The notes: generated from the letters alone by a model not told the origin. A stretch of DNA of 64,000 nt from Acidimicrobiia bacterium (GCA_965248705.1 CBDFJY010000002.1:1322980-1386979), one strand, 5' to 3'. Counted from the first letter of the stretch, positions 5,641 through 60,706 are shown. Numbers and translations: made by a program.

Positions 5641-6672
5641 ATGAGAAACCGAAGAGTGGTTCTGGGAATCACAGTCATGCTGGCCCTTGCCTTGTTGGCC
5701 TCGGCCTGCGCCGAAGAAGAAGAAGCCGCACCCGACGGCCCGAGTTTGATCTATGTAACCCCCAATCCGATTGGCGTTAACAAGTTCCTGGAACTGGGCC
5801 AAGTCGGCACCCAGCGGGTGGCCGAGGAAATGGGAGGGTCTTGGAAAACCTTTGAGTCGACCAACGACTCCGACCGGCGCGCCAACGTCGAGGCCGCCAT
5901 TGACGAGGCGCCCGACGTGGTGGTGCTCACCACCTTCACACTCCTCGAGTTGGCCGACGAAGTTTCCAAGGCCAATCCCGATCAGCAGTTCATTCTGATC
6001 GACGCCTGTCCCAACGAGCCTGCCGCCAACCTGCACTGCGGGGTTTTCCGGGAGCACGAAGGGGCCTACCTGCTGGGCATCATGGCGGGCCGTCTCAGCC
6101 AGGCCAAGCAGATAGGCTCGGTAGTGGCGCTGGACATTCCGTTCCTGCACCGCTGGTCCGACAGCTTCGCGCTGGGCGCCCAGAGCATCGATCCTTCCAT
6201 TACCGACACGCAAGTGTTCATCGGTGGCGACAATCCCTTCTCCGATCCGGCTCGCGCCAAGGAACAGGCGTTGGCGGTGGCGGCGCGCGGCGCCGATCAC
6301 ATCTTCGCAGTGGGCGCCGGGTCCAACGGCGGCATTTTCGAAGCCGCCCAGCAGGAGGGCTTCTTGAGCTATGGTGTGGATATCAACCAGTGCCCGGACG
6401 CTCCGGGAAGCATCGTTGACAACAACCTGAAGCTGGTGGATGTCCTGGTCGAACAGTTAGCGAAGCAGGTGCTGGACGGAACGGCCGGCTCGGTGGTGGC
6501 CTTCGGTCTGGCCGAGGGCGGCACCGGTGTGGTGGCCCTCTTCTCCGATGACGAACTAGCAGCAAGCGAGTGTGTGATTGCCGACCATCCCGATATCGTG
6601 GCCGAGGTCCGCGCCGCCCGGGACGCCATCGTGGCAGGCGACATCGTAGTCCCCGACCCCCTGTTCGGTTGA
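5641..6672 (+). CDS. BMP-family ABC transporter substrate-binding lipoprotein (nucleoside-binding PnrA-like)
   Basis: Lipoprotein signal peptide MRNRRVVLGITVMLALALLASAC, where LASAC is the lipobox. BMP/PnrA-like body. It is immediately followed by the ATPase and two permeases. Confidence 0.75.
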   Translation: MRNRRVVLGITVMLALALLASACAEEEEAAPDGPSLIYVTPNPIGVNKFLELGQVGTQRVAEEMGGSWKTFESTNDSDRRANVEAAIDEAPDVVVLTTFTLLELADEVSKANPDQQFILIDACPNEPAANLHCGVFREHEGAYLLGIMAGRLSQAKQIGSVVALDIPFLHRWSDSFALGAQSIDPSITDTQVFIGGDNPFSDPARAKEQALAVAARGADHIFAVGAGSNGGIFEAAQQEGFLSYGVDINQCPDAPGSIVDNNLKLVDVLVEQLAKQVLDGTAGSVVAFGLAEGGTGVVALFSDDELAASECVIADHPDIVAEVRAARDAIVAGDIVVPDPLFG

Positions 6673-6679
6673 TGACTTC

Positions 6680-8203
6680 TTGACCTTCGAGCTGGAGCTC
6701 CGCGGAATAACCAAGCGGTTCCCCGGCGTCGTTGCCAACGACGCGGTGGACTTGGCGGTGCGGCCCGGAGATATCCACGCCATTGTCGGCGAGAACGGGG
6801 CAGGCAAGACCACCCTGATGTCGTTGCTCTACGGACTGTTCCCCCCCGACGAGGGAGAGATCCTCATCAGGGGGGAACCGGTCCGTTTCTCATCGGCGTT
6901 GGACGCCATCGGGGCCGGGCTGGGCATGGTCCATCAGTCATTCAAACTGTTCCCGACCCTGAGCGTGGCCGACAATGTGGTGTTCCGCCAGGAACCCACC
7001 CGTGGCGGGCTCATCGACCGAGCAGCCAGCGCCGTCCGGGTCCGGGATCTGGCCGACCGGTACGGCTTGGCGGTGGATCCCGAGGCAGCGGTGGAGGATC
7101 TCCCGGTGGGAGTACTGCAGCGGGTAGAGATACTGAAGGCTCTCTACCGGGACGCGCAGGTCCTCATTCTGGATGAGCCCACCGCGGTGCTCACCCCCCA
7201 GGAACGGGACCAGCTGTTCGAGGTTATCCGGAGACTGCGTGACGCGGGGCGAACGATTCTCTTCATCACCCACAAGCTGGGGGAGGTGATGGCGATCTCC
7301 GACCGAGTGACCGTACTCCGCAACGGTCGGTCGGTGGCCAACCTGGTGACCGCCCAGACCAACCCGACCGAGATAACCTTGCATATGACCGGCCGGGCGG
7401 TCGACTTGCATCGGAGGGCCCCCGAACACGAGCCCGACCGGGTCGTGCTCGAGGTGGAGAGTCTCACCGTGCTGGGCGGCCATGGGCGGCCGGTAGTGGA
7501 TGACGCTAACTTCGAGGTGAGATCGGGGGAGATAGTGGGAATAGCCGGGGTGGCGGGAAACGGCCAGAGCGAGTTGATCGAGGCGCTCTGCGGGCTGCGG
7601 GAGGCGGCCTTTGGCTCGGTGACCCTATCGGGTAAGGACATCACCGGTGTCGACGTGGCCGGACGGCGAGATGCCGGACTGGCATACATACCCGAGGATC
7701 GCTACGGGGTGGGTACCACCCGTCAGGCATCGGTCTCCGAGAACCTCCTGATGGGTCATCACCGGAGAACGAAGGTCCAGCGTAAGGGCTGGTTCGACCG
7801 CCGCGCGGTCACCGAACTCACCCGACGGCTGGTGGAGGTGTTCGGGATCAAGGTGGGTTCGGTATCAGATCCGGTTTCAACGCTCTCGGGCGGGAACCTG
7901 CAGAAGGTGGTGGTGGCTCGGGAGATGGAATACGGTTCGCCGCTCCTCATCGCCGAGCAGCCCACCCGCGGACTCGACATCGGCGCCATCGAGTTCGTTC
8001 ACAGCCAGTTAGTGGATTACCGGGACCAGGGCGGAGCGGTGCTGATGGTGTCGGCCGAATTGTCGGAGATCCTAGCGCTGAGCACCCGCATCCTGGTGAT
8101 GTTCGAGGGGCGCATCGTGGCGAGTCTTGATCCCCGTAGCGTCGCCGAGCCCGAGATCGGCCTTTACATGACCGGAGCGCACCTAGAGGCAGCGGTTGCT
8201 TAA
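6680..8203 (+). CDS. ABC transporter ATP-binding protein with duplicated ATPase domains (nucleoside/sugar type)
   Basis: GENGAGKTTLMS (Walker A) in the first half and a second NBD (GVAGNGQSEL) in the second half. LSGGNLQKV signature motifs are present. Confidence 0.85.
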   Translation: MTFELELRGITKRFPGVVANDAVDLAVRPGDIHAIVGENGAGKTTLMSLLYGLFPPDEGEILIRGEPVRFSSALDAIGAGLGMVHQSFKLFPTLSVADNVVFRQEPTRGGLIDRAASAVRVRDLADRYGLAVDPEAAVEDLPVGVLQRVEILKALYRDAQVLILDEPTAVLTPQERDQLFEVIRRLRDAGRTILFITHKLGEVMAISDRVTVLRNGRSVANLVTAQTNPTEITLHMTGRAVDLHRRAPEHEPDRVVLEVESLTVLGGHGRPVVDDANFEVRSGEIVGIAGVAGNGQSELIEALCGLREAAFGSVTLSGKDITGVDVAGRRDAGLAYIPEDRYGVGTTRQASVSENLLMGHHRRTKVQRKGWFDRRAVTELTRRLVEVFGIKVGSVSDPVSTLSGGNLQKVVVAREMEYGSPLLIAEQPTRGLDIGAIEFVHSQLVDYRDQGGAVLMVSAELSEILALSTRILVMFEGRIVASLDPRSVAEPEIGLYMTGAHLEAAVA

Positions 8204-9290
8204 GCGGTTCCTGGACGAACTCCGGAGTATGAGCCAACGGGCGTTGGTGAGTCCGGTGACCTTCTCGTTGCTCTTTGCCTTTGCTCTGGCCGCCGCCATT
8301 GTGGCTGTCACCGGTGGTGATCCCCTGGCGGCGGGGGAGGAGATGTTCACCGGGGCGGTCACCGGCTCCGGGCTGCGCAACACCCTGGGCCGAGCGATCC
8401 CGATAGTGGGTATGGCCCTGGCGGTCTCTATCGCCTTTCGATCGGGAATCATCAATCTGGGGGGAGAGGGTCAGATGGTGATCGGCGGGCTGGCAGGGAC
8501 GATCGTGGCCATATACGTGCCGGGTCCGGGGATTCTGATCGTCCCCCTGGCGATGCTCACAGGAGCCGTGGTGGGCGCCCTGTGGGCGCTCCTCCCCGCC
8601 TACGGTCAGACCAGGCTTCGTCTTCCCATTCTCATCACCACCCTGCTCCTCAATTACGTGGCCCGCGCCATCACCGGATACCTGGTGCGGTTCCCGCTGG
8701 CCGACGTTTCGGTCACTCTGGCGACCACCCGCCAGGTTCCCGAGTCCGCCCGCATGCCCAAGATGCCGGTCTTCGGAGGAGTCAGCCTGTCGCTGATTCT
8801 TGTCATATTGCTGGTGGTGCTTCTCTGGATGGTGTACACCCGCACCGTGGCTGGCTACGAGACGCAGATGGCAGGCTTCAACATGCGCTCCGCCCGCTAC
8901 GGGGGCATCGATGTGGAGCAGCGCACAGTACAGGTGATGGTGGTGGGCGGGGCGATCGGGGGACTGATCGGGACCCATCTCATCATCGGCGAGGCGATTC
9001 GTTACATCGACGGCGAGTTGGTGCTGAGCGGCTTTGCCTGGACCGGTCTCCTGGTCGCCCTCTTGGCGGTGAACCGGCCCATTCCCATTTTCATTACGGG
9101 GCTCTTCTTCTCGGGTCTTCAGATCGGCGGGCTGGCGATGCAGCGGAACGCCGGCGTGTCGTGGCGCCTATCGCAGGTGTTGCAGGCGGTGGTGATCGTG
9201 GCGGTGGCTTGTCGACTTGCCATCCGAAGGGGTGAGCGGCGCCAGGCCGAGCCAGGGGAAGCCGAAGCGGCGGGGGTGGGGGAGGTCTGA
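8196..9290 (+). CDS. ABC transporter permease
   Basis: Polytopic hydrophobic protein. Its start overlaps the ATPase stop, which is classic operon coupling. Confidence 0.75.
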   Translation: MLKRFLDELRSMSQRALVSPVTFSLLFAFALAAAIVAVTGGDPLAAGEEMFTGAVTGSGLRNTLGRAIPIVGMALAVSIAFRSGIINLGGEGQMVIGGLAGTIVAIYVPGPGILIVPLAMLTGAVVGALWALLPAYGQTRLRLPILITTLLLNYVARAITGYLVRFPLADVSVTLATTRQVPESARMPKMPVFGGVSLSLILVILLVVLLWMVYTRTVAGYETQMAGFNMRSARYGGIDVEQRTVQVMVVGGAIGGLIGTHLIIGEAIRYIDGELVLSGFAWTGLLVALLAVNRPIPIFITGLFFSGLQIGGLAMQRNAGVSWRLSQVLQAVVIVAVACRLAIRRGERRQAEPGEAEAAGVGEV

Positions 9291-10207
9291 TGTTCGAACA
9301 GATCTTCGACACCGCTCTCTTCGACTCGGCCACCCGGGCCATGATCCCCATCCTGCTGGCGGCGCTCGGCGGCATGATCTGCGAGCGTGCGGGGGTCTTC
9401 CAGATCGCCCTGGAGGGAATCATGCTAGCGGGGGCTTTTGCGGCGGTGGCCGGTTCCTATCTGGCCCTGAGCTCCGGCGTGGGGGTGATCTTCGGGATGG
9501 CGGCCGGGATGCTGATTGCCCTCGCTCTTGCATACGGCACGGTTACCCGCCAAGGCGATTCCATCGTGCTGGGGATAGCCTTGAACCTGCTGGCGATGGG
9601 CCTCACCGGCTTCTTACTACCGCAACTCTTCGATGTGCGAGGGGTCTTGCAGCATCCCCGCATCGACGGGCTGGACAGGATCGCCATTCCGGGCCTGTCA
9701 CAGCTCCCCTGGGTCGGGCCGGTGCTCTTCGACAACACCGTCCCCACCTACCTGGCGCTGCTGCTGGTACCGGCCCTGTGGGTGTTCCTGTTCCGCTCTC
9801 CGATTGGTTTGCGTCTCCGGGGGGTGGGTGAGCGGCCCCTGGCTGCGGAGACTCTCGGGGTGAGTCCGACCGTCTACAAATACGGAGCGGTTTTGGCGTC
9901 CGGCGCCTTGGCCGGGATGGCCGGGGCTCAACTCTCATTGGGCAACGTGGTGCAGTTCGCCGAGAACATGTCCAGCGGGCGGGGCTGGGTGGCGGTGGTG
10001 GCGGTGATGTTGGGCCGGGCCCATCCGGTGGGTGTCCTGGCTGCCGCCGCTCTTTTCGCTTTGGCCGAGGCGCTTGGCTTCCGCTTCCAGGGCAACGGCC
10101 TCCCGGTGCAGATAACCGACGCCCTTCCCTTCGTGGTGACCCTGTTGGCTCTGGTGGTCGCTCGCAAGCGATTCGCCCGCCTTCTCGACCTGACCACCGC
10201 CGGTTGA
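9290..10207 (+). CDS. ABC transporter permease
   Basis: Second permease. The start ATG overlaps the previous stop (ctgATGttc). The C-terminus is ..LLALVVARKRFARLLDLTTAG. Confidence 0.75.
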   Translation: MFEQIFDTALFDSATRAMIPILLAALGGMICERAGVFQIALEGIMLAGAFAAVAGSYLALSSGVGVIFGMAAGMLIALALAYGTVTRQGDSIVLGIALNLLAMGLTGFLLPQLFDVRGVLQHPRIDGLDRIAIPGLSQLPWVGPVLFDNTVPTYLALLLVPALWVFLFRSPIGLRLRGVGERPLAAETLGVSPTVYKYGAVLASGALAGMAGAQLSLGNVVQFAENMSSGRGWVAVVAVMLGRAHPVGVLAAAALFALAEALGFRFQGNGLPVQITDALPFVVTLLALVVARKRFARLLDLTTAG

Positions 10208-10249
10208 GTAGGCTGGGTTTGGGTGAGAGGCGGGGCCGGGAGCGGCCGC
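10135..10249. repeat. direct repeat copy A (3' end of permease gene plus about 40 nt downstream)
   Basis: ggtgaccctgttggctctggtggtcgctcgcaagcgattcgcccgccttctcgacctgaccaccgccggttga.. recurs imperfectly at 11204..11318. Confidence 0.7.
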
Positions 10250-10313
10250 GCTGTTCCTGATCACATCCAAGAAGCGATGACCGACCGGAAATGGGAATAC
10301 AAGGAGCAATGTC

Positions 10314-11159
10314 ATGAGCAACAGGGGGCTTTGGGAGCGTTTAGAGCGACGCTTGAATCACAAGATTGAGAAATTCGCGGGAGTAGCGGGAGTTTCAGTG
10401 ATGGATCTGAAGCGTGGAGACGGAGTGTCCATACGTGGCAGCGAGGTGTTTCCCACGGCGTCCACTATCAAGATCCACATTTTGACACAGCTCTTGAGCC
10501 GTGCCGAGAGAGGTGAGATAGACCTTGGTGAGCGCGTCAGGATCACACCCGAGATGCGCGGAACAGGTAGTGGAGTAATCCACTATATGGAAGGTGAGCC
10601 CGAGTTGTCAGTGCTGGATATAGCCATCCTGATGATCATTGTGTCGGACAATACGTCGACGAACATGTGCATAGATTGGGCGGGCATGGAGGCAACCAAT
10701 GCGCTGTTGCGTGACATGGGACTGACCGCGACGAAGTTACGGCGCAAGATGATGGACAGCGAGGCTATACACAGGGGTGACGAGAATGTTTCGACGCCGA
10801 ACGAACTCGTTGCGATGCTGGAGATGCTGTATCGGGGTAAGCCGTCATCCAAAGTGGCGGAGCAGGTCCTGCGGATCATTGGTAAGCCCAAGACTGCACC
10901 GTTGAACCGGGCGATACCGTCCAACTTGGTGGTTGCGAACAAATCGGGCGGCATGGAACGGGTCCGCTGCGATGCTGGAATTGTGTTTCTGGGAAACCGA
11001 CCCTACGCCATAGCGGTGATGACCAAATTCGCATTGGAGGACGTCGTAGGCCGGGAAGCATTCATCATGGATCTGGCACGGGACGTACATCAGACGATGG
11101 TGGCACTGGACAGCACCAACGATTTCGGGTTGGGCGTACTTACGTACACGGGTTACTAG
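10314..11159 (+). CDS. class A beta-lactamase-like serine hydrolase (no signal peptide detected)
   Basis: STIK (SxxK), SDN and KSGG (KTG-like) motifs in canonical order and spacing. The coding region is visibly lower in GC than its flanks. Confidence 0.65.
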   Translation: MSNRGLWERLERRLNHKIEKFAGVAGVSVMDLKRGDGVSIRGSEVFPTASTIKIHILTQLLSRAERGEIDLGERVRITPEMRGTGSGVIHYMEGEPELSVLDIAILMIIVSDNTSTNMCIDWAGMEATNALLRDMGLTATKLRRKMMDSEAIHRGDENVSTPNELVAMLEMLYRGKPSSKVAEQVLRIIGKPKTAPLNRAIPSNLVVANKSGGMERVRCDAGIVFLGNRPYAIAVMTKFALEDVVGREAFIMDLARDVHQTMVALDSTNDFGLGVLTYTGY

Positions 11160-11203
11160 CAACAGTGTTTGCTTGTTGCGACAATGGAGGATTTGCGTAA
11201 CCC

Positions 11204-11318
11204 GGTGACCCTGCTGGCCTTGGTGATCGCTCGCAAGCGTTTCGCCCGCCCCCGGGACCTCACCACCGCCGGATGACTAAGCTGGAATCTGTGAAAGGAA
11301 AGGACCGGAGGCGGCCGT
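11204..11318. repeat. direct repeat copy B (diverged remnant of the permease 3' end)
   Basis: ggtgaccctgctggccttggtgatcgctcgcaagcgtttcgcccgcccccgggacctcaccaccgccggatga.. encodes PVTLLALVIARKRFARPRDLTTAG*. Compare VVTLLALVVARKRFARLLDLTTAG* for the real C-terminus. Confidence 0.7.
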
Positions 11319-11352
11319 AGAATTCCTATACCTGTTCGGGTTAGCGGTCGGG

Positions 11353-11838
11353 TTGCCGCTATTGCTGGTTTTCGCTTTTGGGGGCGAAGTGGGCGCCGAC
11401 ACCGACACTGGTTCGGACGGAGGTTTTTTCTCGCGGGTGTCGATCAGTGCTGTCGCCTTTGGGGCTACCTTCTTTGGACTTTCCGGTCTGTTCACCGTGT
11501 GGGTGGGGCTATCCCCTCTGCCGGGGGTGTTGATCTCCGCGGGGGTGGGAGTTCTGGGGGCAGCCTTTCACAACGCCCTTTTTGGTTGGCTGCGCCGCAC
11601 GGAGGCGTCCAGTGAAGTCACCAACCAGGACCTCGAAGGCGCCACCGGTTTGGTCGTGTTGCCGGTTTCTACCGACAGGCGGGGGCAGATAGTTGTAGAA
11701 GTGGCGGGGCAGCGACTTCGGATTAGCGCCTCCCCCGCCAATCCGGAAGATCGGCTGGCAAAGGGAATCAGGGTGAAAATCGTGGAAATGGATGGCGGCG
11801 TGGCTCTGGTAATAGACTTAGGCACAGAAAGAAAGTAG
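11353..11838 (+). CDS. NfeD-like membrane protein (partner of flotillin)
   Basis: N-terminal hydrophobic segments followed by a C-terminal OB-fold-like region (GQIVVEVAGQRLRI..VKIVEMDGGVALVI). It lies immediately upstream of an SPFH/flotillin gene. Confidence 0.6.
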   Translation: MPLLLVFAFGGEVGADTDTGSDGGFFSRVSISAVAFGATFFGLSGLFTVWVGLSPLPGVLISAGVGVLGAAFHNALFGWLRRTEASSEVTNQDLEGATGLVVLPVSTDRRGQIVVEVAGQRLRISASPANPEDRLAKGIRVKIVEMDGGVALVIDLGTERK

Positions 11839-13142
11839 TGAATATGTTTGGAAATGCAGGAACTCCGTTGTTGCTCGGCGCGGCAGTTGCGTTGGTGATA
11901 TTGATTCTGATCGGAATCGTCAAGTCTTTGGTGGTGATTTGTCCTCCCAACCGGGTGGCGGTGATTTCCGGACGCAAGCGCGCACTGAGCGACGGGCGGA
12001 AGGTGGGCTATCGCCTGCTACAAGGAGGACGGACGCTGCGTGTCCCTCTCATTGAGCGGGTCCAGTGGATGAGTCTGAACACCATTCCGTTGGAAGTGGC
12101 GGTGACCAACGCCTATTCGCGGGGGACGATTCCTCTGAATGTGGCGGGGATCGCCAATGTGAAAGTGTCAAGCCGTGAAGGATTGCTGGAAAACGCCGCT
12201 GAGCGGTTCCTGGGACGGTCCAGTGCTCAGATCGGACAGATTGCGAAGGAGACGCTGGAGGCCAACCTGCGAGGCGTGTTGGCGACCTTGTCGCCCGAAG
12301 AGGTGAATGAAGACCGACTCAAGTTTTCGCACCAGTTGATTGATGAGGCCGACGACGACATCAAGACCCTGGGTCTGGAACTTGATGTCCTCAAAATCCA
12401 GAACGTCACCGACGATGTCCAGTATTTGACCTCGGTGGGGCGCCTTCTCACCGCCGAGGTGATTCGTAATGCCCGTGTGGCGGAAGCAGAACGCAAAGCA
12501 GAGGCGGAAAAGGCCGAGGCTGCCGGTCGGCAAGTTGGACAGGTCGCCGGCCTTGAGGCGGACAGGGCGATCGTGGTGGAGAACAATGGTCTGCGGGTCC
12601 GTACCGCCGAACTGGAGGCCGTCTCGAACGCACGAGAGGAGGAAGCGCTGGTGGCGGGAGAGGTCGCCAAAGTCGTGGCCAGTCAGGAGTTGGAAGGCCA
12701 GCGCATCGAGCTGGAGAAACGACGCGTGGAGGCGGCGGTGGTGGTTCCGGCCCGAGCCGAATTGGAAGCTCAACAACTGCATGCCCGGGCCGAAGCAGCG
12801 TCGATCATCGAGGACGGAAGAGCCCAGGTTGAGGTGTTCAAACTCCTCACCGATCAGTATCAGGCAGCCGGCAAGGACGGGCACCATGTGCTGGTGCTCA
12901 ACATGCTTCCCGAACTGATCGACAAGATCGTCGCTACCGTGCAAGGAGTCAAGATCGACCGGGTGGCGGTGGTGGACTCCAACAGCGACCGGGGCAGCAG
13001 CGGTGGAGGTATACCCGGCCTGGTTTCCCAACTGCCCGCCGCTCTGGTGGCCCTGACGGAACAGATAGATGCCGCCACCGGAGTGGACATCCTTGGCTCG
13101 CTACGCCGCCATGTCGACGAACCGACGGAGGACAACGGGTAG
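11838..13142 (+). CDS. flotillin / SPFH (band 7) domain protein
   Basis: N-terminal TM, an SPFH domain, then a long Ala/Glu-rich coiled coil (AEAERKAEAEKAEAAGRQ..). Typical of YqiK/FloA-like flotillins. Confidence 0.8.
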   Translation: MNMFGNAGTPLLLGAAVALVILILIGIVKSLVVICPPNRVAVISGRKRALSDGRKVGYRLLQGGRTLRVPLIERVQWMSLNTIPLEVAVTNAYSRGTIPLNVAGIANVKVSSREGLLENAAERFLGRSSAQIGQIAKETLEANLRGVLATLSPEEVNEDRLKFSHQLIDEADDDIKTLGLELDVLKIQNVTDDVQYLTSVGRLLTAEVIRNARVAEAERKAEAEKAEAAGRQVGQVAGLEADRAIVVENNGLRVRTAELEAVSNAREEEALVAGEVAKVVASQELEGQRIELEKRRVEAAVVVPARAELEAQQLHARAEAASIIEDGRAQVEVFKLLTDQYQAAGKDGHHVLVLNMLPELIDKIVATVQGVKIDRVAVVDSNSDRGSSGGGIPGLVSQLPAALVALTEQIDAATGVDILGSLRRHVDEPTEDNG

Positions 13143-13149
13143 GCCTAGC

Positions 13150-13212
13150 CACAAGTCGGCTTTTGCCGGCTTGCTCGTATGGGTGGAGGGCTACCAAGAA
13201 CCCGATGAACAA
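13150..13212 (-). pseudogene. remnant copy of the 3' end of membrane-protein gene 15341..15700
   Basis: Minus-strand translation FIGFLVALHPYEQ matches the C-terminus FLGFLVALHQYEES of the intact gene. The nucleotide repeat gtatgggtggagggctaccaagaacccgatgaa matches gtattggtggagggctaccaggaacccgaggaa at 15371..15403. Confidence 0.6.
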
Positions 13213-13307
13213 TCCCCGCCGACCAGGGCCGGGCAGCCCAAACTGTCGCAGTGCGCCGCCAACCTTGGTGGAACAGCCGGAGGCAACGGCTGTAGGTTGG
13301 GTAACGC

Positions 13308-14309
13308 TTGGAGGTCCCTATGGAAAGCGCTCTGCAGACCGAGCTCGAACTGGAGATTGATCATCCGAAGCAGGGTCGCGTAAAGACACCTGTTTACCTC
13401 ATCCAAGCTGGGATGACTGATAAAATTAGCCCTATCAGATCGCACCAAATCGAAGTTTCGCCTATTCCCGCGGTAAACGTCGCCTCGGTGCCGCAACGCA
13501 GTCCGCTCCGCTATCCAGGCGGCAAGACATGGCTGGTCCCTCATATCCGTGCTTGGCTCAGCAGCTTCTCCGAGAGGCCCAGGTTGCTGGTCGAACCCTT
13601 CGCCGGCGGGGGGATTGTTTCACTGACCGCCGTTATGGAAAATTTGGTTGAACGTTGTCTTATGGTTGAGCTGGATCGCGACGTGGCTGCCTTCTGGCAC
13701 GCAGCCCTGCGTAAAGGGGAGGAACTCGCTGAAAAGGTGTCATGCTTCACGCCCACGAGAGAAGCGGTGCACTTGCTGGCGAGCCGCGAGACACACGACA
13801 TCGTGGAACACGGTTTTCGCACCCTCGTGTTGAATCGGACCCGCCGGGGTGGCATTCTGGCTCCGGGCGCCTCGTTCAGCCGAGTGGGTGAAAACGGCAA
13901 AGGGCTTGCTTCTCGCTGGTATCCCGAAACGATCGTGAATCGCTTGCAGGAAATAACGAAACACGCCGACCGCATCAGCTTCTGTGAGACGGATGGCATG
14001 AAGATGCTGGAAGCTTTCTCGGGCGAACTTGGTGGTGGCGCAGCTGTTTTCGTGGATCCGCCTTACACCGCCGGGGGCAAACGGGCCGGCAAGCGATTGT
14101 ACGCGCACAGCGAAATAGACCACCCACTGCTCTTTGAGATGCTCGCCGAGAGTGGCGCCGATTTTCTTATGACATACGATCTCTCATACGAAGTCGCCGC
14201 CTTGGTGCAAAAGCACGGCTTCCATGCTGTCCAGGTGACCATGAAGAACACGCACCACGCCCGGATTCCTGAATTGGTGATCACCCCTCGACCTGTGTTT
14301 GGTCCATGA
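13308..14309 (+). CDS. DNA methyltransferase, Dam-like D12 class (N6-adenine type motifs)
   Basis: LRYPGGK, EPFAGGG (FxGxG SAM motif I) and FVDPPY (DPPY motif IV). The true start may be the internal ATG near 13413. Lower GC than the host. Confidence 0.8.
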   Translation: MEVPMESALQTELELEIDHPKQGRVKTPVYLIQAGMTDKISPIRSHQIEVSPIPAVNVASVPQRSPLRYPGGKTWLVPHIRAWLSSFSERPRLLVEPFAGGGIVSLTAVMENLVERCLMVELDRDVAAFWHAALRKGEELAEKVSCFTPTREAVHLLASRETHDIVEHGFRTLVLNRTRRGGILAPGASFSRVGENGKGLASRWYPETIVNRLQEITKHADRISFCETDGMKMLEAFSGELGGGAAVFVDPPYTAGGKRAGKRLYAHSEIDHPLLFEMLAESGADFLMTYDLSYEVAALVQKHGFHAVQVTMKNTHHARIPELVITPRPVFGP

Positions 14310-15184
14310 GCACCCGTTACGGGATCGCGGAATGGTATGGCCGCCTATTTTCAGAACTCTCTCCCGAAACCCGGCATACCCTGGCAAGGAAGGCGTTGCG
14401 AGAAGATCCAGAGGCTCCGCCCTGTCCGTTTCAGAAGAACAAACCTCCCTGCCGCAAGCGTGGCGGAGTGTGTTCCCTGCGCCGTTACCAAAGAGGTGAG
14501 AGTGATCGCATCGGCCTTCCCAAGGGCGATCCGGTCGTAGTGTGCCCTGCTCGATTTGAGGAAGGACAATTATTGGTCGAATGGCTCGCTGAGATTGTCG
14601 GTTTCTCATCGAGCGAGGCGAGGCTGGCCCGCGAAGTGCCTTTCATGCAGGGCACCAGCACCGGTAAACCGGCTGGGAAGATAGATTTGGTAGTGGCCAA
14701 GGCCTCCAACGGCGACCTCAAATGGTATGGCTTGGAGATCCAGGCTGTTTATTTCTCAGGCAGAGGAATGAACTCCGAGTATTTGGGTCTTCGAGATGAC
14801 GACTGTAAAGACCCGCCGTTTCCGGGAGCGGTTCGCCGGCCGGATTGGCGATCCTCAAGTGCAAAGCGCCTCATGCCACAGTTGCAGATCAAGGTACCAA
14901 CCCTCCGTCGGTGGGGATCGAAGCTAGCTGTAGCGGTGGATCGGCCTTTTTTCGATTCGATGGGAGGGCCGAGTTCTGCTCCAAGCAGTGATCTCAATGA
15001 TGGTGATATCGTGTGGATGGTCCCGAGGCTCCTACCCAACGACACGGGGGGCAACGCGTTGTCCCGTGGCCACTGGGAAGTTCTTACCTTGGAGGAATCC
15101 AGCAGGAGACTTCTTGCCGCGGAAACCATCCCGCGTCGCGCCTTCGAACAAACACTAAGAGAGAAGCTGGAGCCCATCGGCTAG
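14306..15184 (+). CDS. putative type II restriction endonuclease, NotI-family-like
   Basis: Its ATG overlaps the MTase TGA (ATGA). A Cys cluster PPCPFQKNKPPCRKRGGVCSL, then VVCPARFEE and YGLEIQAVYFSG, resemble the NotI motifs TGTCPFL..SCVK..RGVCVV, LVCPNRALD and YGVLEIQTMDFHG. The comparison is from memory. Confidence 0.5.
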   Translation: MSTRYGIAEWYGRLFSELSPETRHTLARKALREDPEAPPCPFQKNKPPCRKRGGVCSLRRYQRGESDRIGLPKGDPVVVCPARFEEGQLLVEWLAEIVGFSSSEARLAREVPFMQGTSTGKPAGKIDLVVAKASNGDLKWYGLEIQAVYFSGRGMNSEYLGLRDDDCKDPPFPGAVRRPDWRSSSAKRLMPQLQIKVPTLRRWGSKLAVAVDRPFFDSMGGPSSAPSSDLNDGDIVWMVPRLLPNDTGGNALSRGHWEVLTLEESSRRLLAAETIPRRAFEQTLREKLEPIG

Positions 15185-15340
15185 CTAGAGCCTTATGGCC
15201 TTTAGTGATCTGATTGCATATCGTGCAAAGAGCATGGCCGGTTCGTTTTTACAAAATACCTTATTGGTAAGGGAAAACCGCCAAGGGCGTGACGCAGCAA
15301 AGTTATGACCGAATATGGCCTCCGGGTCATGCGCTCGGGT

Positions 15341-15700
15341 TTAGAGGTCGGCTTTTTCGCGGGATTCTTCGTATTGGTGGAGGGCTACCAGGAACCCGAG
15401 GAAGAGCACGGCCGAGACCACGGTGAAGGTGATTGGGATGATCCGCACCTCGAAGGCGTTGAGTCCCTCGATGTTGGCCGGGCGGGGACCTCGGGGAGCG
15501 TAGAGGACGAAAAGCAGGCTGCCGATGGTCATCCAGGCCGAAATCCCGGCCCCGGTCACCAAGAAAGCCAGCTTCTTTCCCAGGTTGGTGTAGTTCAGTA
15601 GGTAGACGGTGCCGTAGAAAACCAGGATCGCCGTCACCAAGAGGATGATTCCGGTGACGAACAGATTGGCCGAAAGCAGGGATCGAAACAGTTCACGCAT
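15341..15700 (-). CDS. small integral membrane protein (3 predicted TM)
   Basis: Hydrophobic 119-aa ORF, last gene of the respiratory operon. Its 3' terminus is duplicated at 13150..13212. Confidence 0.5.
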   Translation of the reverse strand: MRELFRSLLSANLFVTGIILLVTAILVFYGTVYLLNYTNLGKKLAFLVTGAGISAWMTIGSLLFVLYAPRGPRPANIEGLNAFEVRIIPITFTVVSAVLFLGFLVALHQYEESREKADL

Positions 15701-15703
15701 AGC

Positions 15704-17410
15704 TCAGTTCCCCTTGCCGTTGAGGTTGCCTGCCCACAGGTAGTCCACCAGCAGATCCAGGTCGTCGGAGGAAAGCACCGCCCCGAAAGCGGGCATCTGC
15801 CCGTTCCCGAACCCGCTCACCCCGTAGGGCAGGTCGGCCACCGCCCCCACCAGCAGGAAGGAGCGAAGGTCTTCCTTGGCGATGAACTGCACTCGCGGTC
15901 TGCCCTTCCACACTGCCGGCCCGAACCCTCCCGAGCCTGGCTCGGAGGCATAGGGTGTCCCCGCTGACCAGCCGGAAGTGTGACAGCGCGCACAATAGCC
16001 GGTGAACACTCCAACCGCCCGGGTGGCCTGGTCCGTATCGCCGTCAAAAGCCGCGTCGGCCACTCCTTCCAGATCTATCTCCCACTTCCGCTCCATCTGG
16101 GCGTCCCGCAACTCTTCGAGGCCGGCGCGGGCGGGAACGAGCAGCCGCTCGGCGTTTTCGGTTCGCACCGACAGGTTTATCGCCGCGCTCGCCATACCGG
16201 AGACCGCGGTGGCGGCTGCCCGGTCGTCGGTGATCCCCCCGCCCGAGGAAGCCCGCTCAGGATCCAGGTTGACCACCATCAGGGTGTTGGGGCGGAGCGC
16301 TGTCCGGGCTATGGCCAGTTCGGCGGTGAGCACCCTTTCCAACCGGTCGGAGAGGCCGTCTCCATCCGAGTCTTCCTCGTCCTCGGCGTTAGCCGCCGTC
16401 TCGATAGAGGCAAGCCGCAACTGGAGAATCGGGGCCTGGGGCGCCATCGCCCGCAGGGTGGAGCGGGCAAGGTCGGCCACGGCGGCGTCGGGTCGCCCGT
16501 CCGTTGCGGGGTTTTGCGGATCGAAGGTCAAAGCTTCGATGTCGGTGAAGTCGAACAGGGCGGCGGCTGAGGCGGTTAGCTGGGAGATCGTCACCTCGGA
16601 GATATCCGACAGGTTGTCCCCGTCGCGGTCGATTCCCTGGTCCGAGAGTTCGAGGGTCCGGCGGGCGAGGACCACCAGTTCGGCCATGGTCTCGGCATGC
16701 CGTGGCGCCTGTTCTATATCGGCGATCAACTGCTGTTGCTCGATGATGGCCCTTTCCAGCGACTGGTCGGCGTTCTCCAGAAGGCTCAGCTGGTTCACGA
16801 CCATGCCGTCGGTTTTGCGAAGGGTCTCCTGTTGGGAGATTTGGATGCTCTCCAGGTAGTTGACGATGTCAAAGATCTGCTGTTCGTTCATGGGCCCCCC
16901 TCCCACGGTGCCCCAGGGGGGCATGGGGGAGTTGCCCCGCCCGTATGTAATCCAATAGGTGATGATGTCGCGGTCGTAACGCAGGAAGACGTCATCGAGA
17001 GCCGGCGCCGACCAGGACACGTTCACCCCGGTCCGCTTCTCCACATAGCTGGCCACTCCCCCCACTCCGCTAGGGCCGTGACAGCTCCAGCAGTCGGCAT
17101 CGTCAGGTCCCACCAACTCGGCGCCCCGTTCCACCGACTCCTCGTGGAACTGATCGACGAAGCTGAGTTGACGATCGGTCTCACTCAGGTAGTAAACCGC
17201 CAGTCCGACCGCCAGGAAGGCGGAGAGCAGAACTGCGCCCTGTTGGATGCGCTCCAGCCGGCGGGTCTCCAAAGCGTCGTCGGTGACCCCCGGCGCCTGG
17301 TTGGGAGGTATTCCTTCCCGGCGACGGGATCGAAGCGCGGCCACTCCCAAAAAAGAGAGCCAGATCACCGCTCCCACGACGACCAGGGTTATTACCAGCG
17401 AAGAGTCCAT
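15704..17410 (-). CDS. membrane-anchored diheme cytochrome c with a large acidic insertion
   Basis: Two CxxCH motifs (CWSCH near the N-terminus, CARCH near the C-terminus). Each has a downstream Met ligand context (MPPWG, MPAFG). Two N-terminal TM helices. A roughly 300-aa Asp/Glu-rich insert carries DRDGDNLSD and DSDGDGLSD motifs. Confidence 0.8.
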   Translation of the reverse strand: MDSSLVITLVVVGAVIWLSFLGVAALRSRRREGIPPNQAPGVTDDALETRRLERIQQGAVLLSAFLAVGLAVYYLSETDRQLSFVDQFHEESVERGAELVGPDDADCWSCHGPSGVGGVASYVEKRTGVNVSWSAPALDDVFLRYDRDIITYWITYGRGNSPMPPWGTVGGGPMNEQQIFDIVNYLESIQISQQETLRKTDGMVVNQLSLLENADQSLERAIIEQQQLIADIEQAPRHAETMAELVVLARRTLELSDQGIDRDGDNLSDISEVTISQLTASAAALFDFTDIEALTFDPQNPATDGRPDAAVADLARSTLRAMAPQAPILQLRLASIETAANAEDEEDSDGDGLSDRLERVLTAELAIARTALRPNTLMVVNLDPERASSGGGITDDRAAATAVSGMASAAINLSVRTENAERLLVPARAGLEELRDAQMERKWEIDLEGVADAAFDGDTDQATRAVGVFTGYCARCHTSGWSAGTPYASEPGSGGFGPAVWKGRPRVQFIAKEDLRSFLLVGAVADLPYGVSGFGNGQMPAFGAVLSSDDLDLLVDYLWAGNLNGKGN

Positions 17411-22770: not shown

Positions 22771-23729
22771 GCGAGATACTGGAAGCGGCCGCTCGCGCCG
22801 TGGGCGCCCCCGCCGAGTTGGTGCAGCGCTCCGCCGAAGCGCGCGCCGGCGCCAGCGGCGTCTCTGTCGAAGAAGTTCTGACCGCCTGGGCGGGAGGTGG
22901 AGTGGCGCCCCCCTCCGTTCCACCCGCGGCTCCCGTTCCACCCGCGGCTCCGGCGCCTGCCGCGGCTCCCGTTCCACCCGCGGCTCCGGCGCCTGCCGCG
23001 GCTCCCGTTCCACCCGCGGCTCCGGCGCCTGCCGCGGCTCCCGTTCCACCCGCGGCTCCGGCGCCTGCCGCGGCCCCCGCTCCTGCCGTACCATTTCCCC
23101 CGCCTGTGGCCCCTCCAGTCGCAGCGCCGCCTGCCGCAACCCCCGCACCCCAGCCGTCGCCCGCGCTTGGCGCCGCGCCGTCGGCGCCTACCGCCCCTGT
23201 CGCCCCTGCGAGGCCCGCCCTGGTCACGCCCGGGGTCGCGGCGGGCCCGCCCCCGGTGCTGAAAGGTCGGGTGGATCGGCCGTTCCGGTATCTGTTCGGC
23301 GCCACTGCCCTGTTGATCCTGTGCTTGGGCGCCACTCTGGTGGTCCCCGCCCTTTCGGAAACGGGCCGGGGAGCACTCCACTCCGAGATCCCCTTCACCG
23401 CGCCGGCGCGGGCGGGAAAAGAGATATATCTGGCGGAGGGATGTGCGGGCTGTCACACCCAGATGGTCCGTCCCATCGTCGCCGACGCCCAACTGGCCGC
23501 TCTGGCCGGGGTGGGCGGGGTTACCCTGTCCGACACCAATCAGGTGATCGGCCGCCAGCGTTACGGTCCCGACTTGGCCAACGTGGGCAGTCGGATGTCC
23601 CCCGAGGACATCGAGGCGGTGCTTTCCGGCGAGGGAGACCATCTTTCCTACCGGGGCGACTGGACTGATTCCCTGGTGGCATACCTGGTGGAGTCGCGAG
23701 TTTTGACCGAGGACGGATCCAGTGAGTGA
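22767..23729 (+). CDS. CcoO/FixO-like monoheme cytochrome c with an N-terminal cytoplasmic domain and Pro/Ala repeat linker
   Basis: [34 protein letters not shown] closely follows the CcoO signature (G.x.Y..GC..CHSQM.RP..GPDL..VGGRYS). One TM ([20 protein letters not shown]) lies upstream of the heme domain. Confidence 0.6.
22914..23075. repeat. perfect 36-bp tandem repeat, 4 copies plus a partial copy, in frame ([12 protein letters not shown])n
   Basis: cccgttccacccgcggctccggcgcctgccgcggct repeated head-to-tail at 22932, 22968, 23004 and 23040. The last copy has one substitution. Confidence 0.9.
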
Positions 23730-24729
23730 GAATTTGGCGAGAGCGGCCCAGGCCATGGGTGCGCCGGAGGTTTTGGTGCAACGCTCGGCCGAAGCCCGGT
23801 CCCAGGCAAGCGGGGTCCCCGTCGAAGAAATTCTGGCGGCCTGGGCGGGTGGTGGCTCGGCGCCGACGGCCTCCTCCGCGGCTCCGGCTGGCGCTCCCGA
23901 TCCCGTACCTCCCCCGGCCCCAACCCAACCAGCCGCGCCGCCGCCCGTGGTTACCGCGCCTGTGGTTACCCCGCCCGCGGCTCCGAGGCCGGTGTCCCCC
24001 TCACCCGCTCCGGCGGCCCCGGTCGTGGCGCCGCCTCTTCCTCCTCCCTCGGAGGTGAGCACCAAGGAAGCGATTTCCTTCCCGGTGGTGGTGTCGGTGC
24101 CCACCGCCCGCCTGACGGAGAGAACCTCATCCACCCTTCCCCGCTGGCTCGCCGCTCTCTTCCTGGTCGTTCCGGTGATAGGTCTGCTCTATCTGGCGGG
24201 AAACTCCGCCCGGGCGGGATGTGTGGAGGGGGGAGTGGAGTTGGCTGTCAACCGGATCAACTCCACGGTGGTCAACTGCGACGGCAGCGAGTTCACCGGT
24301 CGCGCCGACCAATCGGCGGGGATTTTCCTGGTGATGGGGGAAACGATTTTCGAAACTTGTGCCGGATGTCATGGGGCCACCGGTGAAGGGGGAGTGGGGC
24401 CGGCGCTCGCCACCGTGCTCTCCACTTTTTCGGCTTGCGCGGCCCACATCGAGTGGGTGACCCTGGCCACCGGCGGCTTTCAGAACGCCGGAGAAACCAC
24501 CTACGGAGATTTGGCCAAATCGGTGGGCGGCGGGGGCTTCATGCCCGGATTCGCGACCAGTAACAGCCCCGAAGAGATTGCTTCGGTGGTCTCCTTCGAG
24601 CGGATCCGCTTCGGCGGGGCTGATCCCGATCAAACGCTGATGGAGTGTGGATTGGTAGAGGGCGACACGGGTGAGAGTGACACGGGAGAAGGCGAGGCGC
24701 CTCCCGCGGAGGAGGAAGGAAGCGAATGA
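23722..24729 (+). CDS. membrane-anchored c-type cytochrome (CxxCH) paralogous in its N-terminus to 22767..23729
   Basis: CAGCHGATGEGGVGPAL (class I cytochrome c). The N-terminal 45 aa, [45 protein letters not shown], are about 70% identical to the N-terminus of the preceding protein. A Pro/Ala linker and one TM follow. Confidence 0.6.
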   Translation: MSENLARAAQAMGAPEVLVQRSAEARSQASGVPVEEILAAWAGGGSAPTASSAAPAGAPDPVPPPAPTQPAAPPPVVTAPVVTPPAAPRPVSPSPAPAAPVVAPPLPPPSEVSTKEAISFPVVVSVPTARLTERTSSTLPRWLAALFLVVPVIGLLYLAGNSARAGCVEGGVELAVNRINSTVVNCDGSEFTGRADQSAGIFLVMGETIFETCAGCHGATGEGGVGPALATVLSTFSACAAHIEWVTLATGGFQNAGETTYGDLAKSVGGGGFMPGFATSNSPEEIASVVSFERIRFGGADPDQTLMECGLVEGDTGESDTGEGEAPPAEEEGSE

Positions 24730-25966: not shown

Positions 25967-26342
25967 AATGTCCCGGTGGGGTTGACAGCGTAAGCCCAGG
26001 TTACGAGTAAAGGCTAGAGACTTGGCGATTCAAAAGAAGAAGCCCACCCCGGCCGGGCCTGATCATGAGATCATCCCGACTCCGAGTCGGAAGAAAATTC
26101 CTAGATCGGCAAACAATCCAAGCCAAAAGAGTTGACTCCTGTCACAGGCCGGATACACACTGATGAAAGCTGAAACCACCTCACGGCCCGATCCGACGCG
26201 TCGTTCGGACCGCTCCAGGGATCATATTTCAAAAAGGCACCCCTCCAGAGGACTGGCAGAGCGCGTTTTGACCAAAGGAACGGTGGCGAGCTCCTATGAT
26301 GCTATGATTTCCAAATCGGGTTCGGGAGGTGTTGGGCTGGGG

Positions 26343-27389
26343 TTAGGAGGGGGGTGCTTCGCTTGATGGCGGCGGGTTTTCAAGTAGTCGGTATAGCTGT
26401 CGGGCGATGTACCGTTTGAGGCAGCGGCGGGTTTCTCGGGTGGTTTTGCCTTGGCTGGTGCGTTTGGTGATGTAGGCGCGGGTTTTGGGACAGTATCGGG
26501 CGCGGCTGATGGCGATGGTGTGGATGGCTTGGTTGAGTTGGCGGTCACCGCGTCGGTTCAGCCGGTGGCGGGTGTGTTGTCCCGATGAGGCTTCCAAGGG
26601 GGCTACGCCGGCTAGCCGAGCGAAGGCTGCTTCGTTGCGGCAGCGGCGAGGATGGGACCAGGCAATGAACACTTGGGCGGCTGTGATGGGGCCGATCCCG
26701 GGTTGTTGGAGCAGTTGGGGAGCTACGGTTTGGACTAGTTCGGTGATAGTTGTTTTGAGTTGGGCTGCTTCGGTGGTGAGTGCATTGATTCGCCGGGCGA
26801 GGGAACGCATGGCCTGTTTGGTGGCGGTGTGTTCGTTGGCCGGTGCTGATGTGAGTCGAAACCTGTGGCATTTAGCGACCAGAGCAGCAGTGGTAACACC
26901 TCGGAGTTGGTCTCTGAGATCGACTGGCGCGGTCACTAGGAGAGCTTTCAGTTCGTTGATCGCCGATGTTCTAGCTGTTATTGCGCCTCGTCGGGTGGTT
27001 TCCAACACTCGTAAGGCTTCTCGGTCTCCCCGAACTCGCGGTACAGAAGGTCGGAAGCGGCCCAGCGCCTGGCGGGCGGCCCGGCGAGCGTCCAGGGCAT
27101 CGGTCTTGGCGCCGTCGCCGCTGGGGGTGGGATCGTTGAACTCGGTCACCAGTTCCCCACTAGCGACCAAATAGGAGGTCACACCAGCTCCGTAACTGCC
27201 TGTGCCTTCCACAGACCATACCCGATCGGCGGCCTGGGTGTATTGGTCTACCCACTTCAACAACCGCTTGTATCCCAGCCCGCTGGTCTCGAACACCGCA
27301 GACGCCTGTTCTCCGGTGGTGGCGGTGTCCACTACCGACGCGGTGACCCGGTCACGATCCGGGTCGATCCCGATCACATGTTCTACCAA
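26343..27389 (-). mobile_element. IS110-family transposase gene (copy 1)
   Basis: ..HVIGIDPDRDRVTASVV.. DEDD N-terminal domain. C-terminal ..EASSGQHTRHRLNRRGDRQLNQAIHTIAISRAR.. is the Transposase_20-like region. The ATG-defined ORF extends to 27560, but the conserved core begins near 27389. Confidence 0.75.
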
Positions 27390-27474
27390 TGAGGCCAACA
27401 CAACAACCTTCTTTCCTTGTTTGCTACCTGGTTTGTCCAAGGAGGTGCGATCCGAACGGCAGGACTGTGATGAG

Positions 27475-42008: not shown

Positions 42009-42327
42009 GCGGATTGCCCAGCGGTGGGGACGGACACCTGATCTGAAAACGCCGTCCAATCCTATCTCGCGAAAATCGCTCCTGAATTTCCCCTGCCAGG
42101 GCCCTCCCCCGCCACCAGCCTACCGTTGGTCAAAAACGCGCTCCGCCGGTCCCTGAGGGGTCGTTTTTGAAAGAAAATAATCCCTGGAGCGGCCTGAACG
42201 ACGCGTCGGATCAGACCGTGAGGTTGTTGTGACTACTTACCACTATGGGCCGGGCCTGGGATAAGAGTCAAGCCTTGCTAAGGCCGTTTTTTCCCAACTA
42301 TGTGATGTGGAGCGTTAAGCCGGGAAG

Positions 42328-60655: not shown

Positions 60656-60706
60656 GTGCGACTGCCCGGCGGGCCCGTTTGTGATGAGAGTGGAGGCGAT
60701 GCTCCG

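Follow-up and report, generated by a model that had tools for sequence, protein, structure and literature searches.

The 64,000-nt stretch of Acidimicrobiia DNA analyzed here (hereafter the window, or W) contains a Bmp/PnrA-type ATP-binding cassette (ABC) operon on the plus strand (5641-10207), and the last gene of this operon encodes a permease. The permease gene is followed on the same strand by a gene for a class A beta-lactamase-like protein (bla) and then by genes for NfeD, an SPFH/flotillin-like protein, a D12-class methyltransferase (MTase) and a NotI-family endonuclease. Beyond these lie minus-strand genes for a small membrane protein (C3), a di-haem cytochrome c, a Rieske protein and a cytochrome b. 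Since the ABC operon is on the plus strand and the cytochrome genes are on the minus strand, the variable genes lie between two convergent core operons. The subject of this report is a second, partial copy of the permease 3' end, which stands between bla and NfeD.

The sequence-only reading of this locus had described a 115-nt imperfect duplication of the permease terminus on either side of bla, with a left copy (RA, 10135-10249) and a right copy (RB, 11204-11318). Both the duplication and the peptide tails encoded by its copies were confirmed. A repeat search of the window found a direct repeat of 82 nt with 84% identity (10135-10216 and 11204-11285), and blastn of the whole window against itself gave this repeat an E-value of 4.2e-18. 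Local alignment of 11160-11352 with the permease end gave z=39, and none of 500 shuffles scored as high. The genuine permease gene ends in VVARKRFARLLDLTTAG and a stop codon, and RB ends in VIARKRFARPRDLTTAG and a stop codon. Aligned without gaps, 86 of the 115 nt are identical (74.8%). Identity is 84.9% in the part derived from coding sequence (62/73) and 57.1% after the stop (24/42), and just outside the repeat it is at the background level of 38%, over 45 nt leftward and 21 nt rightward.

The composition of the two copies is informative about their history. RB is made up of the final 73 nt of a permease gene, the complete 40-nt spacer between permease and NfeD, and the NfeD start codon. RA is its complement, with a full permease, the same spacer and then a stub of NfeD. 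On the left, therefore, a full permease and spacer lead into an NfeD stub and, on the right, a permease stub and spacer lead into a full NfeD, so NfeD once lay directly downstream of the permease in situ.

Relatives were collected by a scan with the permease protein, taking one genome per species, which gave 73 loci; these and the other contigs compared with W carry L-numbers below. Sixteen relatives have permeases of 91-98% protein identity, and 14 of the 16 are labelled Acidimicrobiia or Acidimicrobiaceae, with several coming from sponge metagenome series. The permease C-terminus, VTLLALVVARKRFARLLDLTTAG before the stop, is conserved in the orthologs of these 16 related metagenome-assembled genomes (MAGs).

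Based on these comparisons, RB is probably a non-functional permease relic that belongs to the NfeD-SPFH module, and not the footprint of a bla insertion. Outside W, L001 and L002, the closest NfeD homologs are 77-81% identical, and these NfeD-SPFH homologs sit between an aminotransferase and a thiolase gene (about 7770-9800) in five contigs of other assemblies, L079-L083, which hold three distinct NfeD sequences. Directly upstream of NfeD in these contigs, the permease-end profile matched with E-values of 5.5e-26 (L082/L083), 4.8e-18 (L079/L080) and 9.4e-13 (L081). The relics found there carry the spacer too, are frameshifted and reach up to 142 nt into the permease. W 11236-13139 aligns at 81%, in one high-scoring segment pair (HSP), with the NfeD-SPFH module and relic at this unrelated locus. 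Beside NfeD-SPFH in L079-L083 there are no sequences of bla, C3, cytochrome c or C2 (a periplasmic binding-protein gene), and there are no ABC genes within 8 kb. Likewise, no synteny was found between the aminotransferase locus and the ABC neighbourhood of the window. Because the relic stands upstream of NfeD where there is neither bla nor an ABC operon, it is best seen as a companion of NfeD-SPFH that is independent of bla. All relics share derived characters, for instance ATGACTA in place of the TTGA[G/T]TA of functional permease ends. As a separate observation on these contigs, an IS110-family transposase gene follows SPFH at a distance of about 5.5 kb in L080, and ISL3 and IS21 genes lie near the module in L081.

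The sequence-only reading had treated bla as cargo whose insertion duplicated the permease terminus, and this part of it did not hold up. In five relatives (clade C: L008-L011 and L014), the permease is followed by bla through the intergenic sequence of the window, with the RA spacer and the region upstream of bla both conserved and without a second permease fragment. In L012 and L013, where restriction-modification (R-M) genes are inserted, a permease relic is found upstream of bla, beyond MTase-NotI (z=20-22). That reading had also named occurrence of the copy in all relatives, independently of its cargo gene, as counting against it, and this is in spirit what the bla-less L079-L083 present. 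In addition, 13 of the 16 relatives have bla, and the gene is under purifying selection, with a ratio of nonsynonymous to synonymous substitution rates (dN/dS) of 0.09-0.17 in pairwise comparisons of the window with other lineages (14 orthologs, window included). By these data, bla is a resident gene rather than drifting cargo.

The claim of a lower-GC segment between the copies stands in part. The segment has 54.3% GC compared to 65.1% in the left flank, but the repeats do not delimit the low-GC tract, because it begins at the permease stop and reaches about 15340, taking in NfeD-SPFH and the R-M genes. The low GC of bla is specific to the clade of W, L001, L002 and L005, in which GC content at third codon positions (GC3) is 0.68 compared to 0.83-0.91 elsewhere. 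NfeD and SPFH share this drop in the same clade, and the GC3 of MTase-NotI is low in every lineage (0.57-0.65). Overall, the repeat, the position of bla between the copies, the lower GC and the description of the bla protein were upheld, and the origin by cargo insertion was not.

An insertion could nevertheless have happened in another form. The bla segment may have entered a resident permease-NfeD junction and duplicated its target, from permease -73/-162 to NfeD +50 (about 190-290 nt), for instance through widely staggered nicks or Campbell-type integration of a circle with the same homology, with the differences between the copies arising later and partly by patch replacement. We consider this fairly unlikely. 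A perfect 48-nt duplication around another insert in L004 is in its favor, but the way in which RA and RB differ is not what such an insertion would leave. An ancestral RB, reconstructed by majority from W, L001 and L002, encodes an intact VTLLALVIARKRFARLLNLTTAG up to the stop, and the last 24 codons of the reconstruction read GTAACCCTGCTGGCCTTGGTGATCGCCCGCAAGCGTTTCGCCCGCCTCCTGAACCTCACCACCGCCGGATGA. Compared to ancestral RA, it has 13 nucleotide differences in 13 codons, of which 11 are synonymous and 2 are non-synonymous; random expectation is 7.6 non-synonymous codons (P=0.0003). After the split of W, L001 and L002, a frameshift arose among the RB copies, which jointly accumulated 10 non-synonymous and 2 synonymous codon changes, compared to 3 synonymous changes and 1 non-synonymous change in the RA copies over the same period. 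By these counts, RB was part of a working permease until shortly before this split, after which it decayed. Because the two products of an in-situ duplication (by target-site duplication, staggered cut or tandem duplication) are identical at first, such an event cannot give this pattern unless the copies are overwritten later. RA and RB are thus, by their codon differences, alleles from different lineages and not the two halves of an in-situ duplication.

The same evidence bears on a tandem duplication, running from the interior of the permease through NfeD-SPFH-bla and followed by differential loss that left only stubs. Such a history would explain the permease stub after bla, the NfeD stub before bla and the permuted order of modules in L003. 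However, its identical starting copies contradict both the synonymous bias and the mismatch between the NfeD stub and the NfeD gene described below, and it was rejected for the window copy on these two grounds. Neither can a tandem duplication bring in modules that were absent beforehand, such as the PD-Lambda-5-like insert of L004 or MTase-NotI, which is present in L013 and absent from L008 though the two are 95% identical. It also leaves the relic at the aminotransferase locus unexplained. As a general account, we regard it as highly improbable.

RB forms the left end of a block with a discordant history. Identity between W and L005 is 65-73% from 11204 to about 12005, whereas it reaches 86-90% over bla and 80-95% over most of SPFH. 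Quartet counts for the pair (W, L005) were 112:5:18 in the backbone, 36:11:7 in bla and 54:10:17 in the rest of SPFH, but 17:24:21 in the block (Fisher P=4e-6 for the comparison with the rest of SPFH and 6e-4 for that with bla). The NfeD of the W clade is nearest to that of L079 (80% amino acid identity), and not to that of its backbone sister L005 (72%). The NfeD stub can be typed in L002, where it is 73 nt long and an nhmmer NfeD profile matches at L002 10935-11045 (E 1.2e-18). The nucleotide identity of this stub is 78-79% with L007/L004, 69-71% with the NfeD that the W clade now has and 61-64% with the L079 group. Since it matches the L007/L004 type, the in-situ stub and the present NfeD are of different types, which also speaks against a simple insertion between them. 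We infer from these patterns that a tract of about 800 bp was imported into the lineage of W, L001 and L002. The relic, the spacer, NfeD and the first ~170 nt of SPFH would have entered as one piece, and the donor permease would still have been functional at that time, with NfeD directly after it. At 11204, the sharp left edge marks where an imported tract ends, or else a secondary boundary, rather than a conserved insertion site. The coordinates of these and the other features are given in Table 1.

Table 1. Features of the window between the ABC operon and the cytochrome operon
Feature	Position	Strand	Evidence or content
Intact ABC permease gene, second BPD_transp_2 permease	9290..10207	+	Pfam PF02653, E 3.5e-38
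RA, left repeat copy	10135..10249	+	Last 73 nt of permease (10135-10207), 40-nt spacer (10208-10247, contains GGGAG), start of NfeD stub
NfeD stub, ~7 codons, GCGCTGTTCCTGATCACATCC, remnant of resident gene truncated in situ	10248..10270	+	Alignment
bla-like gene: conserved upstream region, ribosome-binding site AAGGAG, open reading frame 10314-11159, 281 aa	10271..11159	+	Pfam PF13354
Spacer after bla, 44 nt	11160..11203	+	Alignment with relatives
RB, 5'-truncated relic (pseudogene) of permease 3' end, last 24 codons and stop	11204..11276	+	nhmmer permease-end profile, positions 178-294, E 4.8e-19
Permease-NfeD spacer, 40 nt, GGAGG at ~11307-11311, and probable NfeD start codon GTA (11317-11319)	11277..11319	+	Amino-acid-level conservation
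Discordant tract: relic, spacer, NfeD and first ~167 nt of SPFH	11204..12005 (right limit approximate)	+	Identity, quartets
NfeD (11317 or 11353 to 11838) and SPFH/flotillin-like gene (11838-13142)	11317..13142	+	Pfam NfeD, Band_7
C3 3'-end relic, directly after SPFH	13143..13221	-	nhmmer C3 profile, E 1.4e-11
Type II R-M genes: D12-class adenine MTase (13308-14309), NotI-family endonuclease (14306-15184)	13308..15184	+	Pfam PF02086, PF12183
Right core border: C3 (15341-15700), di-haem cytochrome c (15704-17410)	15341..17410	-	Pfam PF13442/PF00034

A second mosaic tract lies inside the permease gene. From 9396 to 9845, W shares 88-91% identity with L035 but 75-78% with L005, its backbone sister, and the quartet counts are 2:3:17. 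Plain homologous patch replacement thus takes place at this locus too. Donors could not be assigned by identity, as the relics are too short and the lineages too alike. The only relic informative in this respect is that of L004, which is 100% identical to the permease end of its own genome and at most 94% identical to any other.

Gene-end relics were then sought at the module borders of the 16 related sponge-associated Acidimicrobiia genomes, where they proved to be common. A permease relic lies beyond bla in W, L001, L002 and L005. The relic of L035 is weakly supported (z=2.8-4.4). A 12-nt match after SPFH in L003 ('ACCTGACCACCG') was considered as a permease relic and dropped, since 33 of 500 shuffles reach it. 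In L004, the permease relic is 48 nt long and lies beyond a frameshifted PD-Lambda-5_A-like (ParB-like) gene. The insert in this genome is 1.36 kb long, within a feature at 10864-12335; it also carries the first ~45 codons of a C40-like second gene, inside which it ends, and represents a recent event. The distal copy of L004 ends in a different stop region, which is that of the intact permease end in L012, and the L004 relic with MTase-NotI is collinear, in one 2-kb HSP, with the intact permease end and MTase-NotI of L012. The MTase-NotI module, too, thus carries the permease end of its former context.

The 5' limit of the permease relic varies by genome (-162, -73, -55 or -35 nt). The junctions join a C2 fragment to permease -73 in L002, a C40-like fragment to permease -55 in L004 and the bla 3' end to permease -162 in L005. 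L002 has ~265 extra nt between bla and the permease relic, including a 215-nt C2 3' relic (12011-12225, E 2.5e-55) that has been lost from W and L001. The C2 fragment in this position suggests that the incoming DNA ended arbitrarily in another gene, which is not expected of a bla segment that duplicated its target. Other relics are those of the bla 5' end before NfeD in L004, of C2 in L013, of NotI in L036 and of the C3 3' end after SPFH in W and L002. Each relic is the end of a gene that directly adjoins that module in some other genome.

The C3 relic of the window gives an example of this at the opposite border. In the self-comparison by blastn, it appears as a 57-nt repeat with 84% identity (13155-13209 and 15347-15403, E 2e-9) that brackets MTase-NotI, and the genuine C3 3' end is at 15341-15403 on the minus strand. 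The relic is 98% identical in L002, where the bracketed gene is C2 and not MTase-NotI. C2 mostly adjoins C3, and MTase-NotI fills the slot that C2 holds in L001, L002 and L005. Since the same C3 relic brackets C2 in L002, MTase-NotI has replaced C2 in the lineage of the window. PADLOC assigned the two R-M genes to MTase_II / PD-Lambda-5_B.

These varied borders are difficult to reconcile with a site-specific element or cassette, in which a tyrosine or serine recombinase acting in trans, or an integron-like system, would use the permease 3' end as its attB site, and the two repeat copies would be attL and attR. Elements that enter gene 3' ends typically restore the gene and leave a direct repeat, and new modules do stack beside the permease. 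However, no integrase was found in or near any of the 16 hotspots examined. No integrase or transposase was found within 5641-17410, where every open reading frame (ORF) was assigned to other families by Pfam. A tRNA scan found no tRNA in the window. The repeat search gave no meaningful inverted repeats, and no terminal or attC-like ones at module ends. Scans for Rfam families, promoters and terminators found nothing at the junctions; the sole Rfam match in the window is a SAM riboswitch (RF00162, 71.9 bits) at 54846-54937 on the minus strand. The lack of a recombinase, of inverted repeats and of conserved ends weighs against the insertion of a bla segment as well. The limits of the relics vary, their junctions truncate arbitrary genes, and C3, C2 and bla have left mirror-image relics at other borders. 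bla was not found in viral contigs. Finally, bla occurs without the repeat in L008-L011 and L014, and the repeat occurs without bla in L079-L083. The site-specific element model is close to refuted.

Other mobile-element candidates were tried and rejected. A transposon or insertion sequence (IS) does not fit a segment with no transposase, no terminal inverted repeats and a repeat that is 115 nt long and imperfect. An integron cassette was set aside because there is no inverted repeat at the module ends and no integrase. A link to the IS110-family transposase at 26.3 kb was dropped, as the transposase and the 117-nt repeat beside it are absent from all hotspots.

Although the permease-derived part of RB appears to be non-functional, the spacer after it does not. 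Amino acid conservation of NfeD, with mostly synonymous changes, begins at 11317 in 11 lineages, and upstream of this position the frame is broken by indels. The codon at this position is GTA in 7 of the 11 lineages, ATA in 2 and GTG in L004 and the L002 stub, and it is 6 nt after GGAG. NfeD, therefore, probably starts at the conserved non-canonical codon at 11317, and not at the TTG at 11353 of the ORF list. W, L001 and L002 have the spacer in identical form (100%), and it probably stays conserved because it carries the ribosome-binding site of NfeD. The relic itself, in contrast, would have decayed neutrally after import.

It could be argued that the permease-derived part is kept for a function, for instance because it is a small ORF or serves NfeD-SPFH as 5' leader or promoter. 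Lineages that diverged deeply have all kept the relic ahead of NfeD, in two genomic contexts, the spacer is invariant as described, and W has a 31-codon ORF (ATG 11184 to TGA 11276). Yet the coding-derived part gains non-synonymous changes and frameshifts and is truncated variously at its 5' end. The small ORF is not conserved, with the 265 nt inserted in L002 and a frameshift in L001. No promoter-like site was found in the scan, and conservation is concentrated in the spacer and ribosome-binding site. A function of the relic is, therefore, very unlikely.

There is next to no probability that the repeat is due to chance similarity or is an artefact of metagenome assembly. The window and all comparators are probably MAGs, which leaves some room for artefacts, but the alignment statistics (E 4e-18, z=39) are strong, and the same architecture is found in the independently assembled L001, L002 and L005. 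Of these, L002 is a contig of 2.6 Mb, and the other two are assembled to chromosome level.

The close relatives were compared for what lies between the two core operons. The ABC operon is kept in all 16, and the cytochrome c operon was recovered in 14; L006 has none within 10 kb and the contig of L009 stops before it. Genes for Rieske and Cytochrom_B_C proteins lie beyond cytochrome c, and the right border is kept in all close relatives. bla is followed by NfeD-SPFH in L001, L002, L005 and L035, and in the window MTase-NotI follows this pair. The order is NfeD-SPFH then bla in L003, MTase-NotI then NfeD-SPFH in L007, and MTase-NotI then bla in L012 and L013. Clade C has bla without NfeD-SPFH or MTase-NotI, and the remaining interval holds C2 or other genes. 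L004, L006 and L036 have other contents. Among distant relatives (at most 81% identity), none of these modules is found beside the permease. The interval between the ABC operon and the cytochrome bc operon is, thus, a recombination hotspot in which modules are added, replaced and re-ordered.

Chromosomal integration hotspots that lie between core genes and lack mobile-element genes are known from comparative genomics of horizontal gene transfer. The present locus resembles them in its high turnover between convergent core operons, its enrichment in defence genes (R-M, PD-Lambda-5-like) and its lack of mobility genes, but it differs in that its gene-end relics form an unusually readable record of former neighbors. 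Islands and prophages in gene 3' ends (attL/attR) likewise have an intact end on one side and a partial direct repeat on the far side. In contrast to these, the locus has no integrase, no fixed core and variable limits, the differences between the copies are biased towards synonymous changes, and the relic moves with the neighboring module.

How the scars arose can be proposed from their structure. Recombination would have taken place with DNA of related lineages carrying other hotspot contents. One crossover would be homologous and lie in a conserved gene, while the other join would often be non-homologous and lie inside a neighboring gene. Each join would leave a truncated gene end, which would then travel with the adjacent module. 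Homology-facilitated illegitimate recombination would be the simplest process that gives all of the scars, as judged from sequence. The scars show an intact anchor, new DNA and a 5'-truncated anchor end, and this pattern recurs in L004, L012 and L013. The copies come from different genomes according to codon bias, the discordant tract and the NfeD types. The junctions are non-homologous, at arbitrary positions, and truncate genes.

According to PMC3240628, homology-facilitated illegitimate recombination was defined by experiments in Acinetobacter, Streptococcus pneumoniae, Pseudomonas stutzeri and E. coli. In this process, one end is homologous and one join is non-homologous, which fits the junctions in arbitrary genes and the allelic copies seen here; the difference is that, in the present locus, the process is read from sequence scars. 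The same mechanism has been proposed for sequential displacement at type VI secretion system (T6SS) effector-immunity loci of Vibrio cholerae (Kirchberger et al. 2017, PMC5361080), and displacement of C-termini at Rhs loci is attributed there to Jackson et al. 2009. In both cases, as in the window, a conserved upstream gene serves as the homologous anchor and the incoming DNA brings its own 3' end and new genes. This displaces the old 3' end, with the genes behind it, to a more distal position, where they remain as orphans or relics, and no integrase takes part. Several differences from the T6SS loci should be mentioned. The anchor here is a housekeeping ABC permease and not a toxin gene, and there is no obvious selection to keep the displaced genes. 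The cargo is heterogeneous (hydrolase, NfeD-SPFH, R-M, binding protein). Relics are also found at the opposite border and between modules, and one of the modules occurs together with its relic at another, unrelated locus.

Several points weigh against reading RB as a relic that came with NfeD-SPFH through this kind of recombination. Every genome compared is a MAG, and DNA uptake, natural transformation and illegitimate recombination are putative in these uncultivated bacteria. The donor, with an intact RB-type permease directly before a W-type NfeD, was not found among the genomes compared, and a 25-mer of the spacer had no exact match in JGI metagenome contigs. A local deletion of the ABC operon may have taken place at L079-L083, though synteny does not speak for it. 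In L005 and L035, the relics have other junctions and may stem from separate events. The two halves in L002 (permease, spacer and 73-nt NfeD stub on one side of bla; permease stub, spacer and NfeD on the other) fit a single insertion with a long target duplication (~190-290 nt), and the later import of the tract could have erased the traces of a first event between bla and NfeD.

A stronger form of this history is that NfeD-SPFH and its permease relic together form a distinct unit, one that moves between unrelated chromosomal sites and between lineages without a recombinase of its own. The hotspot would then be a chronologically stacked, integrase-free cassette array built by a systematic terminus-regenerating process and not by sporadic accidents. 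We think this stronger form distinctly unlikely.

The protein encoded by bla also deserves comment. The sequence-only reading had called it a class A-fold hydrolase with SxxK, SDN and KSG motifs and no signal peptide, and this description was borne out. The ORF matches Pfam Beta-lactamase2 (E 8e-59), and S50-T-I-K53, S111-D-N113, K210-S-G212 and RRKMMDSEA are invariant in the 14 orthologs. Its score against NCBIfam NF033103 bla_class_A is 116.8 bits, below the cut-off of 200. The closest solved structure is PBP-A Tll2115 of Thermosynechococcus elongatus (PDB 2J7V, E 4.9e-25). The bla product resembles PBP-A (2J7V/2J8Y, 2J9O/2JBF) in having SxxK, SDN and K(T/S)G. In sequence alignment alone, Met146, which is in RRKMMDSEA, aligns with a Leu in 2J7V and a Glu in 2J9O. 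The protein thus has no Glu where 2J7V has the Leu of NNPLPDM, a position at which 2J9O/2JBF has Glu. We take the position of Met146 to be that of Glu166 in class A enzymes. In class A beta-lactamases, the omega-loop Glu166 is the general base and is needed for deacylation. The protein differs from PBP-A in its low identity to it and in lacking an N-terminal extension for a signal peptide.

The bla ORF cannot be extended upstream, and its first 23 residues are charged and align with the start of the mature domain, which suggests that there is no room for a signal peptide. About 930 homologs are about 277-283 aa long. With no upstream extension and homologs that are all ~280 aa, a cytoplasmic location is plausible. 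The product is, therefore, predicted to be a PBP-A-like class A-fold serine hydrolase and not a bona fide beta-lactamase, and the gene should not be annotated as a beta-lactamase or a mobile-element resistance gene. A look-up of the exact protein gave no match. Distant bla homologs (SAR202, other bacteria) are in unrelated contexts, with no conserved link to a Bmp-type transporter. In L005, the C-terminus of the bla product is rewritten (…ALD-TNDDGARCLEDRGKPVF and a stop) at 11935-11953, where the final ~25 nt are lost and the ORF reads into the permease relic; the rest of that gene looks intact.

A few features elsewhere in the window were recorded. The IS110-family gene (DEDD_Tnp_IS110 and Transposase_20), at 26343-27560 on the minus strand, is the sole transposase gene in the window. 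A 117-nt sequence just downstream of it (26174-26286) recurs inverted, with 82% identity, at 42115-42228, 16 kb away. This second copy adjoins an unrelated ORF. The repeated sequence may be an IS end, a non-coding RNA region or a solo remnant. Five tandem paralogs of luciferase-like monooxygenase genes (PF00296) lie at 58641-63560, with 76-83% nucleotide identity. The self-comparison also gave weak direct repeats of 72-74% identity at 22797-22933 and 23752-23885, which probably reflect adjacent paralogous genes, and at 26504-26596 and 27807-27899.

The second permease end is an ordinary recombination scar in an integrase-free hotspot, and an unusually legible example of one. A direct repeat of a gene end is easily misread as an insertion footprint or an att site; here, it records a former gene neighborhood. 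Codon-position analysis of RA and RB together with local phylogenetic discordance separates in-situ duplication from recombined alleles. Each relic names a previous neighbor and is, thus, informative on how the hotspot evolved. The locus is a clear natural example of the turnover of accessory and defence genes without mobile machinery in uncultivated sponge symbionts.

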